Positions 2,985 through 33,710 of a stretch of DNA of 37,184 bases are shown piece after piece. Numbering within the stretch: position 1 is the stretch's first letter; each line of letters opens with the position of its first letter. Origin of the DNA: Candidatus Moraniibacteriota bacterium (GTDB lineage Bacteria > Patescibacteriota > Minisyncoccia > CAIUEV01); NCBI GenBank assembly GCA_016867255.1, contig VGKB01000002.1, positions 1-37,184 of the forward strand. The letters are read 5' to 3'. The notes under the pieces were generated by a model. The model searched no databases. It was not told the origin of the DNA and saw nothing but the letters and a program-made list of their open reading frames with translations. Position numbers and translations under genes: made by a program.

Positions 2985-3089
2985 GCCCGCCAATTATTTG
3001 AATTTCTAATCACTGACGTCTTCAAAACGCAAAAAGTGAAAAAGCGGGAAATGAAAAGATGAAAAATAGACCAAAACTGGCCGAAACGC

Positions 3090-3118
3090 TTGACAAAACC
3101 GTGGTTATTTAATATTAC
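3090..3118 (+). promoter_or_regulatory. Promoter-like TTGACA-17 nt-TATTAC with no adjacent CDS
   Basis: cttgacaaaaccgtggttattt (3089-3110) differs at one base from the promoter core at 14371-14392. The next plus-strand CDS starts at 3357. Confidence 0.45.
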
Positions 3119-3243: not shown

Positions 3244-3271
3244 AGGACATTTCTAAAAATTTGTAAGAAAA
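3244..3271. repeat. Second copy of the 28-nt repeat at 1021..1048
   Basis: Exact 28/28 match, followed by a degenerate version of the copy-A promoter (tgcttgcaat vs tgcttgacaat). Confidence 0.9.
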
Positions 3272-4952: not shown

Positions 4953-5154
4953 AGATTTTGTCGTTCCAAGCCGACAGAGAAAAAATAAGGTTTATTATTG
5001 ACTATTGCGATAAAAATAACATCGATTACATCGGCCAAACTGGGTTAACCCCAACCCTGCCTGTATAAATCTCGGGTGTCTTTTATATTTTTAAAGCTAC
5101 AATGTTTTTTCGGATCATCAATAATAGAATAGAGGGGAGATTTTAGCCCGAAAC

Positions 5155-5311
5155 CCCGATTTTGCTTGACAATTTTGTATAAATGGCCAGAATTAAGAGT
5201 TGCCGTAATGGCAAGTTCTTTGAAAAAACCGAGTTTCGCTCGGTCCACGCGAGAACCCGGTCTACCCGGTTAACTCGTGAACAATCTCTGTAGGAGGTGC
5301 CGCGATGAACG
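5155..5311 (+). repeat. 157-nt promoter/leader repeat, copy B
   Basis: See copy A (1051..1207). Confidence 0.95.
5166..5304 (+). promoter_or_regulatory. Promoter plus structured leader, family member B
   Basis: Same architecture as member A. The 1106 a-to-g change lengthens the small stem to TTGCC/GGCAA, and the two changes at 5237-5238 fall in the loop of the CCGAG/CTCGG hairpin. Confidence 0.6.
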
Positions 5312-5877
5312 TTTTCGCTGAGTGGCTGAAGAGATGCGCCGCGTTCTTCGCGGCCCATTGGGAAAAACTGAAAAAGCTGGGAATTACTGTTATTGGATGG
5401 ACTAGCAATAGCGCCGTGGAGGCCGCGTTTAATTACGTGATCTACCCATTCATTATTGTGAAGTTTGGCGTTTTGCTTGGCGTTTCCATTGCGGTAATAG
5501 CTTCTTTCACAATTTGTTGCCTGACTTTTCGTTTTTACGATTGGTCTCAAAAGGACTGGTTCGGAATCGAGAAGATAAAAGAGATTCGCGAAGGAAAGGG
5601 AGATACAAAGGTTGGATGGTTCGCTTCGCGTTTTTTAAAAGGTAGCAAGTGGTTGGCTTTTGTCTACATCACATTCAAATTTGATGCTTTTATGGCAACC
5701 ATATTCATGCGGGAAGGAGCGTATCAATTCAACGAACTGAGCCGGAGAGACAAAAAAATCTTCCTGTTTAGCTTCTTCCTTAGCGCCATCACATGGTGGC
5801 CACTAGTTTGCGGGGTTCTCTATGGAGGAGAGTGGGCCTGGGAAACTTGGTTCAAAGATCTCGCAAACATTTTTTAG
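5305..5877 (+). CDS. Polytopic membrane protein (about 4-5 TM), function unknown
   Basis: Strong SD GGAGG. Hydrophobic segments include YVIYPFIIVKFGVLLGVSIAVIASFTICCL and IFLFSFFLSAITWWPLVCGVLY. Followed by a strong terminator. Confidence 0.8.
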   Translation: MNVFAEWLKRCAAFFAAHWEKLKKLGITVIGWTSNSAVEAAFNYVIYPFIIVKFGVLLGVSIAVIASFTICCLTFRFYDWSQKDWFGIEKIKEIREGKGDTKVGWFASRFLKGSKWLAFVYITFKFDAFMATIFMREGAYQFNELSRRDKKIFLFSFFLSAITWWPLVCGVLYGGEWAWETWFKDLANIF

Positions 5878-8085: not shown

Positions 8086-9927
8086 ATGCTTTGCCTAGAT
8101 TTTGAAACCCCACATTTTCTAGTTTTTGCGAGTACGACTCCTTCTCTTATTTATTTCTCTCATATACCTGCGATGTTGCTATCGTTATTGATGGGATTTT
8201 TTATATTCATAAAAAATAAGAAAGCATTAATTTCGCAAATTTTGTTTACTTTATCTATAACGTTCTCTTTGTCATGCTTTGTCTTACTTATTACTTGGAC
8301 TAATAATGACACCAGCATTATAATGTTTGTTTGGTCAATTTTTGGAATTTTGTATCTTCTGACATTCTTTTTCTCTTTCTATCTAGTATACCTTTTTATA
8401 AAACAGCGTGATATTAGTTTAAAAACAAAAATTTTTCTATCGTTGTTTCTTGCGCCAACCATTTTTTTCGCATCATCAAAATATAATCTAAATGTTTTTG
8501 ACTTAAAACTGTGTGGCATAACCCAAGAAGGAAGATATTTCACAAATTATTATTATATTGCAGGATTAGCGATTTTTATATGGATGTCTATTGTTTCAAT
8601 AACCAATTATTTAAAAATTAAAACTATTTTTAGAAAACAGATTTTACTCTTGCTCGGAGGCGTCAGTTTTTTCTTACTATCACTCTTTTTTACAGGTTTT
8701 TTAGCAAGTCTCTTAGTGGACTATGGGGTATTTAGTGACTATTCTGTGGAGCAATATGGACTATTCGGAATGCTGGTGTTTTTAGCTTTTCTTTCATATC
8801 TAATCATTAAATATCAAGCCTTCGATATTAAAGTTATTGCAGCTCAGTTCCTTACCGTTACGGTGTGGATTGGGGTGTTTTCCCAGTTTTTCATTGTGCA
8901 GGAGTTGAGTAATCAGATTCTTACTGGCGTGACGCTTGCCCTTGTAACGATTTTTGGGTATATGCTTTTTCGCGCCATCAAAGAAGATGTTTCCCTTACC
9001 GAACAATTGCGGCTCGCTTCCGGCAAGCTGGCAATCTTAAACACCAAACTCAAAGAAATTGACGCCGCCAAATCCGAATTCGTCTCCATTGCCTCGCACC
9101 AACTACGCACCCCCCTCACCTCGGTGAAGGGCTACGCCTCCCTCATTTTGGAAAACACCTTCGGAAAAATCCCTCTCCGCCAGCGCGAAGCGGTGGAAAA
9201 ACTCTATGTCAACAACGAAAAACTGGTGCTTTTGGTGGAAGATATGCTCAACGCTTCCCGCCTGGAAGCCGGCCGGCTGGAATACGAATTTGAAGAGGTG
9301 GACGTCCCGCCTCTCATCAAAGAGATAGTGGATAATATGCAGCTCCACGCCAAAAGCAAAAATCTCTTGCTTAAATACACCGCTCCTTCCAAAACCCGTT
9401 CGGCTTCGCTCAGGGCAAGCTCTTTAATCGCCCTTGCCGACAAGCGCAAGGTGGCCGAAATTATCGCCAATCTCATTGACAACGCCGTGAAATACTCCCC
9501 TGCCCTTCATGAAGGGCAGAACAATACGGCTGAAAAACAAACTATAACCGTCAGCGTCTCCCGCTGCGAGTTGGCAAGGCCGGTCGGTAAAGCGAAAAAC
9601 ACCAAAATTCTAAACGGCGCCGGGGTGCGCGTAAGCGTTGCCGACAACGGAATCGGCATGAGCGAAAAGGAACTGAAAGAAATATTTGAGAAGTTTAAAA
9701 AAGGAGAAACGAAAAATGAGAAACAGGAAACGGGATCGTCCTTTATAGTTAAAAGAGAGAAAGAAGGAGAAATTGATAACAAAATAGACAATATCACCGG
9801 CACCGGCCTCGGCGTCTACATCTCCCGCCAGATGGCCCGCGCCATGGGCGGCGATCTGTGCGCCACTTCGCCGGGCAAAGGCAAAGGGAGTACATTTACC
9901 CTAGAATTACCCCTGGTTAAAAAATAG
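8086..9927 (+). CDS. Multi-pass membrane sensor histidine kinase
   Basis: About 270 aa of N-terminal transmembrane helices. H box SEFVSIASHQLRTPLTSVKGY, N box NLIDNAVKYS, G1 DNGIGM and G2 GTGLGVY, with a charged insertion of about 35 aa between the F box and G2. No response regulator nearby. Confidence 0.9.
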   Translation: MLCLDFETPHFLVFASTTPSLIYFSHIPAMLLSLLMGFFIFIKNKKALISQILFTLSITFSLSCFVLLITWTNNDTSIIMFVWSIFGILYLLTFFFSFYLVYLFIKQRDISLKTKIFLSLFLAPTIFFASSKYNLNVFDLKLCGITQEGRYFTNYYYIAGLAIFIWMSIVSITNYLKIKTIFRKQILLLLGGVSFFLLSLFFTGFLASLLVDYGVFSDYSVEQYGLFGMLVFLAFLSYLIIKYQAFDIKVIAAQFLTVTVWIGVFSQFFIVQELSNQILTGVTLALVTIFGYMLFRAIKEDVSLTEQLRLASGKLAILNTKLKEIDAAKSEFVSIASHQLRTPLTSVKGYASLILENTFGKIPLRQREAVEKLYVNNEKLVLLVEDMLNASRLEAGRLEYEFEEVDVPPLIKEIVDNMQLHAKSKNLLLKYTAPSKTRSASLRASSLIALADKRKVAEIIANLIDNAVKYSPALHEGQNNTAEKQTITVSVSRCELARPVGKAKNTKILNGAGVRVSVADNGIGMSEKELKEIFEKFKKGETKNEKQETGSSFIVKREKEGEIDNKIDNITGTGLGVYISRQMARAMGGDLCATSPGKGKGSTFTLELPLVKK

Positions 9928-9933
9928 ATCAGC
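9799..9933 (+). repeat. 135-nt direct repeat, copy 1 (functional 3' end of the kinase gene)
   Basis: Recurs at 13611..13745. The first 56 nt are identical, with about a dozen substitutions after that. Confidence 0.9.
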
Positions 9934-13575: not shown

Positions 13576-13604
13576 TTGACACCGAAAGTAGTCATGGATA
13601 AAAT
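13576..13604 (+). promoter_or_regulatory. Promoter-like TTGACA-17 nt-TAAAAT reading into the kinase remnant
   Basis: TTGACA at 13576-13581, TAAAAT at 13599-13604. Confidence 0.4.
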
Positions 13605-13610
13605 ACCAGT

Positions 13611-13745
13611 GGCACCGGCCTCGGCGTCTACATCTCCCGCCAGATGGCCCGCGCCATGGGCGGCGACCTCTACGCCACCTCCCCCGGGAAGAATAAAGGG
13701 AGTACCTTTACCCTAGAATTACCCCTGGTTAAAAAATAGATCAGC
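13611..13745 (+). pseudogene. Remnant 3' end of a histidine-kinase gene (repeat copy 2)
   Basis: Translates in frame as GTGLGVYISRQMARAMGGDLYATSPGKNKGSTFTLELPLVKK*, but an in-frame TAA lies at 13599-13601 and there is no kinase body upstream. Confidence 0.8.
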
Positions 13746-13841: not shown

Positions 13842-13985
13842 TTGACAAAAATGAATAAAAATTGATAATTAAGGGTTGTTAAAAGGGCAAGTTCTTTAAA
13901 AAATGTTCGTAGGAACCCAAGGTGTTAAGCTATAACACTTTGGGTTCCTACGAACAAGACCAGACAAGACGAGGAGGGAAAAACC
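13842..13985 (+). promoter_or_regulatory. Promoter (TTGACA-17 nt-ATAATT) plus structured leader, family member C
   Basis: AAGGGTTGTTAAAAGGGCAAGTTCTTTAAAAAA (13871-13903) matches members A and B. Then a roughly 22-bp hairpin at 13905-13955 (gttcgtaggaacccaaggtgtt / aacactttgggttcctacgaac). SD GGAGGG precedes ATG 13986. Confidence 0.6.
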
Positions 13986-14285
13986 ATGAAAAAAATCGCG
14001 GTGTTGGGTTTCGTGTTCTTTCTTTTGTGCGTTGCTCTCACATTAGGAACGTGGTGGCTGACCAAGCCGTTGTTGCCATCCACTACGAACCTGATCACCT
14101 CTGCGCCGGCAGAGGAGGTTTTTGACAGGGTTCGCTCAGGGACATCAGACCGGGAGGTATTTGATTACCTCCGGGGTGGTGGTGGACCCAGACCAGATCC
14201 ATCCACCACAACGACAACGCCCACCGAACCCAGCAGACCCAAGCCGGGACCTAACCGTAACCGGCCGATGCCGATAAAGATCTGA
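13986..14285 (+). CDS. Small secreted or membrane-anchored Pro/Thr-rich protein
   Basis: Signal/anchor MKKIAVLGFVFFLLCVALTLGTWW, then a low-complexity tail (GGGGPRPDPSTTTTTPTEPSRPKPGPNRNRP). Good SD and its own terminator. Confidence 0.7.
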   Translation: MKKIAVLGFVFFLLCVALTLGTWWLTKPLLPSTTNLITSAPAEEVFDRVRSGTSDREVFDYLRGGGGPRPDPSTTTTTPTEPSRPKPGPNRNRPMPIKI

Positions 14286-14290
14286 CCCTT

Positions 14291-14348
14291 AGGGACAAGG
14301 TGCCAGCCGTTACTTTTTACGGCTCCCCGCCTTGTCCCTTTTTCTTTT
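14291..14348 (+). terminator. Rho-independent terminator
   Basis: AGGGACAAGG (14291-14300) pairs with CCTTGTCCCT (14330-14339), with an inner AGCCGT/ACGGCT stem, then TTTTTCTTTT. Confidence 0.8.
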
Positions 14349-14371
14349 GGACAACAAAAACTGCGTTTGTC

Positions 14372-14533
14372 TTGACAAAACCGTAGTTATTTTGATAATA
14401 AAAGGTTGCCTGATTGGAACTTGCGGCTCAAGTTCCGGGGCGACAGGTTCTTTATAAAACATATTCCTTAGCCAAAAAAGATATCCGCCCCTGGCGGAAA
14501 ACCCAACAACCCGATACCCATAAGGAGGAGTTT
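14372..14533 (+). promoter_or_regulatory. Promoter (TTGACA-17 nt-ATAATA) plus structured leader, family member D
   Basis: GTTGCC (14405-14410) pairs with GGCGAC (14439-14444) and encloses an inserted hairpin GGAACTTG-cggct-CAAGTTCC (14416-14436). Then AGGTTCTTTATAAAAC and hairpin CCGCC-cct-GGCGG. SD AAGGAGG precedes ATG 14534. Confidence 0.6.
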
Positions 14534-15328
14534 ATGAACAGATTCTGGAAAATCTACATCGTGGCGCTGATCGTCCTGATCGGCGTCTTCTGGGGAATTA
14601 TCTCCACCTGCATAGACAGGGGCTTACACCTGATAGGATCTAAGTTGAGTAGCACGGGCGAACAACAAAGAACTCCGCCAAAATCCCCGATAGAAGTTTG
14701 GGGCGGCTGGATCGGTTTGGAGACCTTAGTTGATAAGGAAGGCAATCCAGTTTGGTCGCCGGCTTACTATGTCAACCCGAAATTGTTTCAGGTTCCCGTA
14801 GATCAAGTTGGGCACTTGATTGTTCCCCTGCCTCCCATATCGGTAAACTGCGAAATAAATGTGGGGAGGAATTTCTGGCTGCACAGAGAGACAGTTATTG
14901 ACAAACTTGAGAAAGAAGGGGGCATCCCTGTTGAGAAAAAAGAGGTGACAACGGGATTTAAGTCGCCTCAGCTCAAGTTCGAACAACCCCCTGAATTCTT
15001 GTTTCCAAGAGTAATAAGGGCATACTTTGACCACCTCAAATGGCTAAACGAGCAATTCGATGAGGCCATTAAGAAATACTCAGATAAACAAGTGGCGAGG
15101 GACGCCCAAAAACACGGGAAGGAAGAAGAGCTTAAGGAAAACATCCGTAAACTCCGCCAAGACAGCGAAGAGTTGCAGAAGTACCGGAAATGGCTGGGAA
15201 AATGCGAGGACTATGTCCTTGTTTTGGCGAAGAGAAAAATATCTGACTCCCGCCTCATGAATGTCGTGTGGGAGTTCTACGTTATACGCAAGGACAGGCT
15301 TGATGAGGAATTGAATAGGGATAAGTAG
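14534..15328 (+). CDS. N-terminally anchored protein with charged coiled-coil-like C-terminus, function unknown
   Basis: Preferred start is MNRFWKIYIVALIVLIGVFWGII, which has SD AAGGAGG 6 nt upstream. The track's TTG start at 14414 would translate the conserved leader. Confidence 0.7.
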   Translation: MNRFWKIYIVALIVLIGVFWGIISTCIDRGLHLIGSKLSSTGEQQRTPPKSPIEVWGGWIGLETLVDKEGNPVWSPAYYVNPKLFQVPVDQVGHLIVPLPPISVNCEINVGRNFWLHRETVIDKLEKEGGIPVEKKEVTTGFKSPQLKFEQPPEFLFPRVIRAYFDHLKWLNEQFDEAIKKYSDKQVARDAQKHGKEEELKENIRKLRQDSEELQKYRKWLGKCEDYVLVLAKRKISDSRLMNVVWEFYVIRKDRLDEELNRDK

Positions 15329-21315: not shown

Positions 21316-21565
21316 AATTGTTCTTCTTGAAAATAAAATCTGATAAATCCTAAATTGAAAATGCTAAGTTCCAAAAAACTCTAAATCTCAAGCACTAATT
21401 TAGGATTTGGTGCTTAGCGCGATTTGTAGCTTAGAATTTTTAATTTAGTGCTTTGAAACCATAAGATCGGTTTCGATATTCAATATTATTAAACAAGCAA
21501 ACCGGAAGAATTAACAAATGTGTAATTTATCTATATTATTACATCAGTAAATCATAAAATAAAAA

Positions 21566-27824: not shown

Positions 27825-27934
27825 CTTGAAAATTTTGCTATAATACTAACCGATACGAACATTCTTACCGCTAAATATGGATTTGGAAAGAGTCGGCTAT
27901 AAAGATTAGCGTTTTGGTCGCGGCGGGTTGTGTT

Positions 27935-27962
27935 GGAATTTGGAATTTAGAATTTAATTTTT
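27935..27962. repeat. 7-nt tandem repeat tract (ggaattt ggaattt agaattt aattt)
   Basis: Head-to-tail heptamers spanning the ftsQ stop. Same unit as the tracts at 29005 and 30821. Confidence 0.8.
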
Positions 27963-28904: not shown

Positions 28905-29004
28905 AAATCTCAGGCTTCTGTTCGGTGAGGAAAGTCCACGCCCCACTAATCTATATTTATACCGGTTGGAAGATTTTTTCTTAAAAAGGAACACTGGTTG
29001 TGGA

Positions 29005-29039
29005 TAAATTTGGAATTTTGAATTTAGAATCTCGGATTT
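29005..29039. repeat. 7-nt tandem repeat tract (taaattt ggaattt tgaattt agaatct cggattt)
   Basis: Five phased heptamers between the relA stop and the probable ftsQ start. Confidence 0.8.
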
Positions 29040-30820: not shown

Positions 30821-30862
30821 AGAATCCCGAATTTGGAATCTAGAATTTAGAATTTAGTGCTT
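30821..30862. repeat. 7-nt tandem repeat tract (agaatcc cgaattt ggaatct agaattt agaattt agtgctt)
   Basis: Six phased heptamers in the relA/lepB divergent region. The last 12 nt, aatttagtgctt, also occur at 21442-21453. Confidence 0.8.
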
Positions 30863-33482: not shown

Positions 33483-33513
33483 ATAAATAATTAAAAATTT
33501 AAAAATAATAAAG

Positions 33514-33598
33514 TGCCGGAGAGGAGAGTTGAACTCCTACCACCCTAAGGGTGACAACGCCCTGAACGTTGCGTGTCTGCCAATTCCACCACTCCGGC
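33514..33598 (-). tRNA. tRNA-Leu (anticodon CAG)
   Basis: The reverse complement folds by hand. Acceptor GCCGGAG/CTCCGGC, D arm GTGG..ACAC, anticodon stem CAACG/CGTTG with loop TTCAGGG, long variable arm CACCC-tta-GGGTG, T arm AGGAG-TTCAACT-CTCCT, discriminator A. No encoded CCA. Confidence 0.9.
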
Positions 33599-33710
33599 GT
33601 CTTTCGCTAAAGCTCCAGAACGCCTAAAAGGTATTCCGTAGCCTTAGCGAAGGATACCACTCCGGCGTCTTTCGCTAAAGCTCCAGAACGCCTAAAAGGT
33701 ATTCCGTAGC
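33588..33710. repeat. 55-nt direct repeat x2 (33588-33642 and 33656-33710) covering tRNA-Leu positions 1-11 plus 44 nt of its upstream flank
   Basis: Both copies read accactccggcgtctttcgctaaagctccagaacgcctaaaaggtattccgtagc. Period 68 nt. Confidence 0.9.

Follow-up and report, generated by a model that had tools for sequence, protein, structure and literature searches.

Putative boxA-type leaders behind strong promoters of small protein genes in a Candidatus Moraniibacteriota bacterium

Introduction

BoxA is the site bound by NusB and NusE (S10) in rRNA leaders and in the nut sites of phage lambda (PMC5725501). In rrn operons, boxB, boxA and boxC follow one another 5' to 3' just after the P2 promoter; boxA is both necessary and sufficient, and boxB has no clear role (PMC10250234). 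Many further boxA sites have been predicted in the mRNA leaders of diverse species by Baniulyte et al. (PMC5725501). The subject of this work is a set of four promoter-leader units, designated A to D, that were found in a 37,184-nt stretch of DNA from Candidatus Moraniibacteriota bacterium (contig VGKB01000002.1 of assembly GCA_016867255.1, positions 1–37,184, + strand; hereafter the window) and in each of which a strong predicted promoter is followed by a box that is probably a boxA. A first-pass annotation of the same DNA had presented these units as a candidate new cis-regulatory RNA. To our knowledge, boxA was long viewed as an rRNA and phage signal, and the few mRNA and CRISPR-leader cases that have been tested all come from Proteobacteria.

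The E. coli rrnB leader, when read directly, contains a TTGACT hexamer, a TATTAT hexamer, the hairpin GCCGCUGAGAAAAAGCGAAGCGGC, the dinucleotide AC and then the boxA sequence UGCUCUUUAACAA. The order found in the window units is a -10 hexamer, 6–7 nt, a hairpin, 0–2 nt and the box.

Four promoter-leader units in the window

Direct reading of the sequence at all four units, which lie on the + strand, confirmed both their positions and the single common layout that the first-pass annotation had described. The promoter of unit A consists of TTGACA (1062–1067), a 16-nt spacer and CAGAAT (1084–1089), and the same arrangement is found in unit B (5166–5193). Units C (13842–13869) and D (14372–14399) contain TTGACA and a 16-nt spacer followed by GATAAT. 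The perfect -35 hexamers therefore stand as annotated, whereas the spacer is 16 nt rather than 17 nt and the -10 hexamers are better read as CAGAAT (A and B) or GATAAT (C and D) than as AGAATT or ATAATT. In a promoter scan the unit promoters matched 10–11 of 12 hexamer positions. The + strand has seven TTGAC[AT] promoter-like sites, and the box is found at four of them; none of the seven such sites on the - strand has it.

The string RGTTCTTTRWAAAA has four perfect matches in the window, every one of them inside a unit and on the + strand. The joint pattern TTGACA-N15-17-NANAAT-N10-40-GTTCTTT was found three times, against 0.00 in 100 shuffles; unit D falls outside the gap limit of this pattern, with 47 nt from the -10 hexamer to the box. 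The corresponding distance is 21 nt in units A to C and about 12 nt in an orthologous leader (locus L058, see below).

In all four units the box lies on the transcribed strand of the gene, in sense orientation, 21–47 nt past a near-consensus promoter whose start is predicted. The distance to the -10 hexamer varies while the box adjoins the hairpin, the element is strand-specific, and its G-U pairs form only on the sense strand; because of these features, the sequence argues for a cis-acting leader RNA signal rather than promoter or operator DNA, transcription from the predicted start being assumed. The annotated cis-regulatory RNA is thus retained as a leader RNA signal behind a strong promoter, while the case for a structured RNA is weak, as described below.

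The box matches the boxA consensus

GYTCTTTAANA is the consensus for boxA in gamma-proteobacterial rRNA and suhB (PMC5725501). Unit C contains GTTCTTTAAAA (13891–13901), which matches this consensus at 11 of 11 positions and is identical to the boxA of the Legionella pneumophila Lens CRISPR leader, the addition of which to a leader raised pre-crRNA about 10-fold (PMC7862264). The other three boxes each match at 10 of 11 positions, namely GTTCTTTGAAA in unit A (1111–1121, followed by an A-run), the same GTTCTTTGAAA in unit B (5215–5225) and GTTCTTTATAA in unit D (14447–14457). The mismatches in A, B and D fall at positions 8–9 of the gamma-proteobacterial 11-mer. In the structural study of NusB-NusE-boxA by Stagno et al., G2, C5, U6 (with C tolerated) and U8 were critical and position 9 was a tolerated purine (PMC3177189). 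By that numbering, G2, C5, U6 and U8 are present in all four units, and one of the two mismatch positions is the tolerated purine of position 9. The relaxed pattern GYTCTTTRWNA was found nine times in the window against 1.5 expected, and none of 100 shuffles contained at least nine. The first-pass annotation had not recognised the motif; by its consensus match the box is most likely a boxA, a known element, and the hairpin before it occupies the position of rrn boxB.

The Gram-positive (Firmicute/Mollicute-type) rrn boxA is taken to read GUUCUUUGAAAAC, with GUU and a G at position 9 as in units A and B. A widely used Mycoplasma PCR primer, GTTCTTTGAAAACTGAAT, carries the GUUCUUUGAAAAC string, and this primer presumably targets the 16S–23S spacer. 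A literature search gave nothing usable on the Gram-positive boxA string or on Nus factors in the candidate phyla radiation (CPR).

Searches of the window and 18 further loci against Rfam at the gathering threshold returned only tRNAs, and searches of the units in E-value mode gave sub-threshold, miRNA-like matches to the long hairpin of unit C. Two other features of the box region were considered and set aside. A TTCnnnGAA palindrome in the box occurs only in A and B, and the frames and stops of a mini open reading frame (ORF) or leader peptide across the region are inconsistent between units.

The hairpin before the box is variable

The folded RNA began at the predicted start and ran through the box, and the energy and its z-score against shuffles were recorded. 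Unit B forms a boxB-like hairpin (5200–5214; UUGCC/GGCAA, 5-nt loop) of -7.3 kcal/mol with a z-score of -2.3, and the boxB-like hairpin of unit A (1096–1110; UUGC/GCAA, 7-nt loop) is marginal at -3.2 kcal/mol and z -0.7. In unit C the hairpin is weak (13876–13890; UUGUU/GGCAA with two G-U pairs; -1.8 kcal/mol, z -0.2). Unit D has a composite hairpin (14405–14444; -21 kcal/mol, z -3.3), in which an outer GUUGCC/GGCGAC helix surrounds the perfect 8-bp hairpin that had been annotated in its loop and was confirmed at 14416–14436.

When the stems were placed in register by hand, the pairs were an invariant U-A, a U-A or U-G, a G-C, a C-G or U-G, and a C-G, U-G or C/A mismatch, with an extra G-C in D. 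From this tabulation all differences among the window units and the orthologous leader L049 were one-sided or wobble. The annotated helix kept by different base pairs is therefore not borne out, since none of the changes is compensatory, and tabulation by hand gave essentially no covariation among the window units and their true relatives. The only two-sided changes, two in number, were seen in a look-alike from Saccharibacteria (L006), the homology of which is uncertain and which has UUAG/CUAA in place of the UUGC/GCAA of the window. MAFFT alignment of 11 hairpin-plus-box instances aligned the box only, and the stems of look-alikes from other lineages share no sequence; because only the box could be aligned, no covariance model was built and the pairs were tabulated by hand. 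Among 25 promoter-plus-box instances outside the window, the hairpin was better than 95% of shuffles in 5, and a hairpin of any kind was seen in roughly a third.

Directly 5' of the box, B, D and L049 have a good stem-loop, A and C a marginal one and L058 none. The stem is real in some members and optional overall, without support from covariation. What was found is one helix of 4–6 bp with no Rfam match, rather than the conserved multi-helix fold or curated family expected of a riboswitch. Nor does the hairpin behave as an intrinsic terminator: only B passes a lenient scan, the stems of A and C are no better than shuffles, and the U-tract is GUUCUUU followed by A residues.

The box in orthologous leaders

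Searches for protein homologues of the downstream genes gave three for ORF B, one for ORF D and none for ORF C. Locus L049 encodes an orthologue of ORF B with 70% amino acid identity, and its leader preserves the promoter, AGTTGCC, GGCAA and the box GTTCCTTGAAT. An extra 12 nt bring the loop to 17 nt, and a different leader sequence follows. The other two orthologues of ORF B (L052 and L055) lack the whole promoter-leader module, and the gene sits directly behind another gene.

The homologue of ORF D (L058–L062) has 43% amino acid identity and lies in a syntenic block with an A24 peptidase, DciA, DnaE and TrbL. Its leader keeps CTTGACAAAACCGTAG of the unit D promoter in identical form, AAAGGGTT and the box (GTCCTTTAAAA, within GTCCTTTAAAAAAA), has no hairpin before the box and is identical in sequence in five assemblies. 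A second copy of CTTGACAAAACCGTAG occurs in the window at 3089–3110. A 91-residue gene of L058 was considered as an orthologue of ORF C, for which the comparison gave no support.

Each orthologous box carries a single pyrimidine change, U6C in L049 and U4C in L058. Taken together, the orthologue comparison suggests a conserved core that consists of the box, a hairpin that is dispensable and a module that comes and goes as a whole.

Leaders, Shine-Dalgarno sites and downstream genes

The annotated order of a leader followed by a GGAGG Shine-Dalgarno (SD) sequence was confirmed, with about 65–70 nt from the box to the SD. The leader of unit A (1124–1203) contains hairpins and the SD AGGAGG (1188–1193) ahead of an ATG at 1201, which opens ORF A (1201–1335, 44 amino acids). 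Unit B (leader and gene, 5228–5877) has its SD at 5292–5297 and ORF B at 5305–5877, encoding a hydrophobic protein of 190 amino acids with no known family. The leader of unit C holds a hairpin (13904–13956) that has 24 contiguous bp when G-U pairs are counted, a loop of 5 nt and no U-tract, and the whole leader has a z-score of -7.5. Its SD, GAGGAGGG (13971–13978), precedes ORF C (13986–14285; SD and gene, 13971–14285), a protein of 99 amino acids with an N-terminal hydrophobic segment and a Pro/Thr-rich tail that had no homologue among 5.8 billion proteins. Between ORF C and unit D, direct reading showed a terminator-like hairpin, GGGACAAGG...CCTTGTCCC, followed by a T-run (14292–14348, + strand), which suggests that C and D are transcribed separately.

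Unit D (leader and gene, 14460–15328) has the SD AGGAGG at 14523–14528 and ORF D at 14534–15328, encoding 264 amino acids with an N-terminal hydrophobic segment. An existing gene call places the start of ORF D at TTG 14414, inside the leader hairpin, which gives 304 amino acids and overruns the leader. The true start is taken to be ATG 14534 because of the SD at 14523–14528 and the N terminus of the orthologue (MEKLWRIYIVAL...). The leader of D is C-rich and G-poor, with a C/G ratio of 2.75, which is weak evidence of a resemblance to a Rho loading (rut) site. On the opposite strand, the hairpin CCGCCCCTGGCGG of this leader (14484–14498, - strand) reads as a terminator, with a hairpin and a T-run, and might block antisense transcripts arriving from the direction of ORF D.

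ORFs B, C and D had no Pfam, PHROG or NCBIfam match. The description of all four products as small membrane or secreted proteins with no recognisable domain holds for B, C and D, which start with hydrophobic sequence, and not for ORF A, which encodes 44 amino acids with no obvious membrane segment.

Duplication of the cassette and neighbouring repeats

A repeat finder showed that 1047–1207 and 5151–5311 (161 nt) are 97% identical and that the copy stops 7 nt into the ORFs. Units A and B are therefore one copied cassette, and the family has three independent members, not four; the four annotated units are real and non-random as such. The repeat finder also joined unit C to A and B, over 63 nt and at 73%, and paired a 38-nt stretch of D with C at 74%. 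Beyond the cassette, ORF A and ORF B had no significant similarity, and protein comparison gave no support for ORF A as a paralogue of ORF B. At unit A the cassette drives only the 44-residue ORF, which runs into a convergent methyltransferase gene, and for this reason unit A is probably a decaying duplicate. The module was copied to a second ORF in the window and accompanies some orthologues and not others, and in this it resembles a portable promoter-leader cassette.

Other repeats were noted close to the units. The last 144 nt of a histidine-kinase gene region (9790–9933) recur with 90% identity at 13602–13745, just upstream of unit C, where the copy sits behind a further TTGACA-17-TAAAAT site at 13576. 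An exact 28-nt repeat (1021–1048 and 3244–3271) flanks unit A and a D-Ala ligase gene. Compared with L049, L052 and L058, the window looks strongly rearranged over its first 16 kb. At 2889–2990, a TTGACT-16-CAAAAT promoter is followed by AAGGTTGTTTGGCTTCTTTGCTAATA and TTTATAGCAAGGCGCTGTCCTTGAAA; this element is conserved in L049 (9343–9440) upstream of an AdoMet decarboxylase gene that is missing from the window, and 27 nt of its leader are repeated exactly at 2069–2095. It may be a degenerate fifth member, with the box CTTCTTTGCTA lacking G2, or a separate leader motif.

As a whole, the window has the appearance of a segment from a small bacterial chromosome of low GC content. Profile searches identified genes for DnaE, RNase J, RelA/SpoT, a signal peptidase, a prepilin peptidase, a TrbL/VirB6-like protein and a ComF-like protein, and the window also contains two tRNAs and several toxin-antitoxin-type genes (Fic with a helix-turn-helix partner, and PIN). 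Identical contigs were found in freshwater metagenomes. Two perfect 55-nt copies, 68 nt apart, lie at 33588–33710; each consists of the first 11 nt of tRNA-Leu (33513–33598, - strand) and 44 nt upstream, a partial tandem duplication of the tRNA-Leu 5' end and promoter region. Short AT-rich repeats of the GGAATTTAGAATTTA type are found between genes beside DnaE, an FtsQ-like gene and RelA (21422–21453, 27926–27956, 28996–29026 and 30826–30862), and the syntenic region upstream of DnaE in L058 (13375–13625) contains similar TTTCAAATT repeats.

Similar leaders in other genomes

Collections were scanned with a stem-free pattern, which gave 12 genome, 32 metagenome and 6 viral matches. The nearest look-alikes in species genomes were mostly from Patescibacteria/CPR, namely Saccharibacteria, Shapirobacteria, Parcubacteria and Moraniibacteriota. 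In three look-alikes (L006, L010 and L015) the box lies 2–15 nt from the SD. A phage contig (L033/L072) also carries a hairpin and box.

A group of Shapirobacteria-type contigs (L007:1400–2540 on the - strand, L019, L023, L024, L027, L032, L042 and L044) has a TTGACA-17-GATAAT promoter, a 6-bp hairpin and a boxA, followed by about 620 nt that contain no ORF and are closed by a clear intrinsic terminator. The region occurs in two variants that share 96% identity, with differences that look compensatory by eye. The region had no Rfam or tmRNA match, and although CUGAUGAG...CGAA strings are present, no hammerhead was called. Judged by its sequence, it is probably an unannotated large non-coding RNA. 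This transcript was counted in favour of boxA because a long untranslated RNA is the classical setting of that element.

In six contigs from sediment metagenomes (L017, L026, L039, L040, L047 and L048), a shared leader contains a promoter, TAAGGTG..., a boxA, ATATGGGGGAG and a long hairpin with CACCUC on its 5' arm and the SD GAGGUGAAAC on its 3' arm, just before the ATG. By this arrangement, these contigs look like an SD-sequestering leader family.

Discussion

The sequence comparisons make it probable that the units combine a sigma-70-type promoter with an rrn-type antitermination leader, made of a boxB-like hairpin and boxA, on mRNAs, and that they are not a new class of RNA. Transcription would start about 7 nt past the -10 hexamer, as placed by consensus, and the first 15–45 nt of RNA would form the optional boxB-like hairpin, directly followed by a boxA of the form (A/G)GUUCUUU(G/A)(A/U)AAAA. 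Given the sequence identity to boxA, the NusB-S10 (NusE) heterodimer would bind the box as it leaves RNA polymerase, and NusA and NusG would join to give an elongation complex resistant to pausing and termination. Such a complex would cross the 65–70 nt of untranslated leader, with their many hairpins and partly C-rich, G-poor sequence, and continue into the small ORF; in its absence, Rho-dependent or hairpin-dependent termination could act on this untranslated stretch. The hairpin would be dispensable, like rrn boxB, and the box would be the functional core.

Several observations weigh against this assignment. An AT-rich motif of 11 nt is low in information, and the scan matches are few, several of them coding (MFFKK) or of low complexity, so that they are look-alikes and amount neither to enrichment nor to a wide family. 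Of the substitutions in the orthologous boxes, only U6C is documented as tolerated (PMC3177189). Downstream of the box there are an A-run and hairpins peculiar to each unit, but nothing GU-rich that resembles boxC or UCUGUGUGGG. No rRNA gene was found in the window with Rfam, and no 16S signature in any fetched locus. Protein family searches of the 37-kb window found none of nusB, nusA, nusG, rpsJ and rho; Nus factors are near-universal in bacteria, and the host is expected to possess them. In minimum free energy folds of the full leaders of A, B and L058, pairing is predicted between the 5' half of the box and sequence just past the first downstream hairpin, as GUUCUU/GAGAAC in A and B (1111–1151 and 5215–5255) and GUCCU/AGGAU in L058 (7325–7368). 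This predicted pairing may be an alternative structure that occludes the box, or it may be due to chance.

The main variant of the boxA assignment, which we consider unlikely, is that the output is repression, as in E. coli suhB, where Nus assembly blocks translation initiation and Rho termination follows; the genes would then be tied negatively to free NusB/S10. A boxA in an mRNA leader can indeed repress instead of antiterminate (Baniulyte et al., PMC5725501), and repression is more plausible in the three look-alikes in which the box nearly abuts the SD. In the window units, however, the separation of box and SD exceeds the 50-nt window used in that study, which also states that longer distances can work (PMC5725501).

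Slightly less likely again is that the box is a functionless passenger in promoter DNA that was inherited through duplication and recombination of the cassette. Such a history would fit the near-identity of A and B over 161 nt, the spacer bases that C shares with both (within the 63-nt match), the recurrence of the D -35 hexamer and spacer at 3089–3110 without a box, and the other repeated fragments in the region. Against this, C and D share little with A and B past the -35 and -10 hexamers, AAGRGTTG and the box; among the orthologues it is the loop, hairpin and downstream leader that change, and the box that stays; and a passenger would need to match an independently defined 11-mer consensus exactly.

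The chances are lower still that the hairpin and the U-rich GUUCUUU form a promoter-proximal pause site or a weak intrinsic attenuator that releases short transcripts. The terminator scan flagged unit B (TTGCCGTAATGGCAA then GTTCTTTGAA), and in D the hairpin of -21 kcal/mol ends 2 nt before the U-rich box. The hairpins of A and C, however, do not exceed shuffles, L058 has the box without a hairpin, the U-tract is interrupted and then gives way to an A-run, and about two thirds of the look-alikes have no hairpin.

The proposal of the first-pass annotation, a new structured cis-regulatory RNA that is riboswitch-like or in which UCUUU acts as an anti-SD, is very improbable. In its favour are the lack of an Rfam family, the G-U pairing by which UCUUU could meet GGAGG, and the two-sided stem changes of the Saccharibacteria look-alike. 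However, the single short helix offers no ligand pocket, shows no covariation in true relatives and is missing from L058, and the box matches a known protein-binding site. An anti-SD role fares no better, as the pairing would be all wobble across 65 nt or more, the SD of A and B pairs locally with UCUCC/UCUCU in the predicted fold, and the orthologues lack the feature. A repressor-binding DNA operator that spans the start of transcription is just as improbable. The perfect inverted repeat of D, GGAACTTG-N5-CAAGTTCC, and the recurrence of CAAGTTC in A to C speak for it. Against it, A to C contain a single half-site, the left "half" can be aligned only with an indel, and the element is strictly strand-specific with a position that varies by 35 nt relative to the promoter.

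If the boxA assignment is correct, Nus-factor control of ordinary genes would extend to a very different lineage, uncultured and probably CPR, with three independent leaders in 37 kb, and the module hints at movement as a cassette. The candidate new riboswitch would be reassigned to a known mechanism, and the 304-residue gene call for ORF D is corrected. The 11-mer could also serve to screen CPR genomes for Nus-dependent transcripts, including the unannotated RNA of about 620 nt. A more speculative extension, improbable though not far-fetched, is a lineage-specific regulon in which the portable hairpin-boxA cassette places orphan genes for small membrane or secreted proteins, together with the Shapirobacteria RNA, under Nus-factor control. 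Expression would then depend on free NusB/S10 and hence on the status of ribosome synthesis, and the density of sites would be far above the 0–7 per genome reported for gamma-proteobacteria.

Comparison with known boxA systems

The window units resemble the E. coli rrn leader in the succession of a -10 hexamer, a short hairpin (marginal in A and C), 0–3 nt and boxA, all within about 50 nt of the start, and the core G-Y-U-C-U-U-U-purine-A of the rrn boxA is common to the units. They differ from that leader in that they precede small protein ORFs, have no boxC and no leader-trailer helix, and contain a hairpin of unrelated sequence; relative to the rrn boxA, they carry U at position 3 (GUU versus GCU) and an A-run. 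The presence of boxA outside rRNA, in a 5' leader, is shared with suhB of E. coli and Salmonella, a ParE-like toxin gene of C. koseri and the CRISPR leader of L. pneumophila Lens. Those mRNA and CRISPR cases are from Proteobacteria with 0–7 sites per genome, whereas four units, three of them independent, are found here within 37 kb of a probable CPR genome, and unlike those cases the window units are preceded by a hairpin and lie 65–70 nt from the SD. As in the lambda nut sites, boxA stands beside a stem-loop, and in A, B, C, L049 and L058 a second hairpin follows 6–8 nt after the box, which is the lambda order. In contrast to lambda, no N-like protein is known here, and the downstream hairpins vary in sequence and size between units. 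The lambda boxA, CGCUCUUA, is itself a weaker match to the consensus than the boxes of the window.

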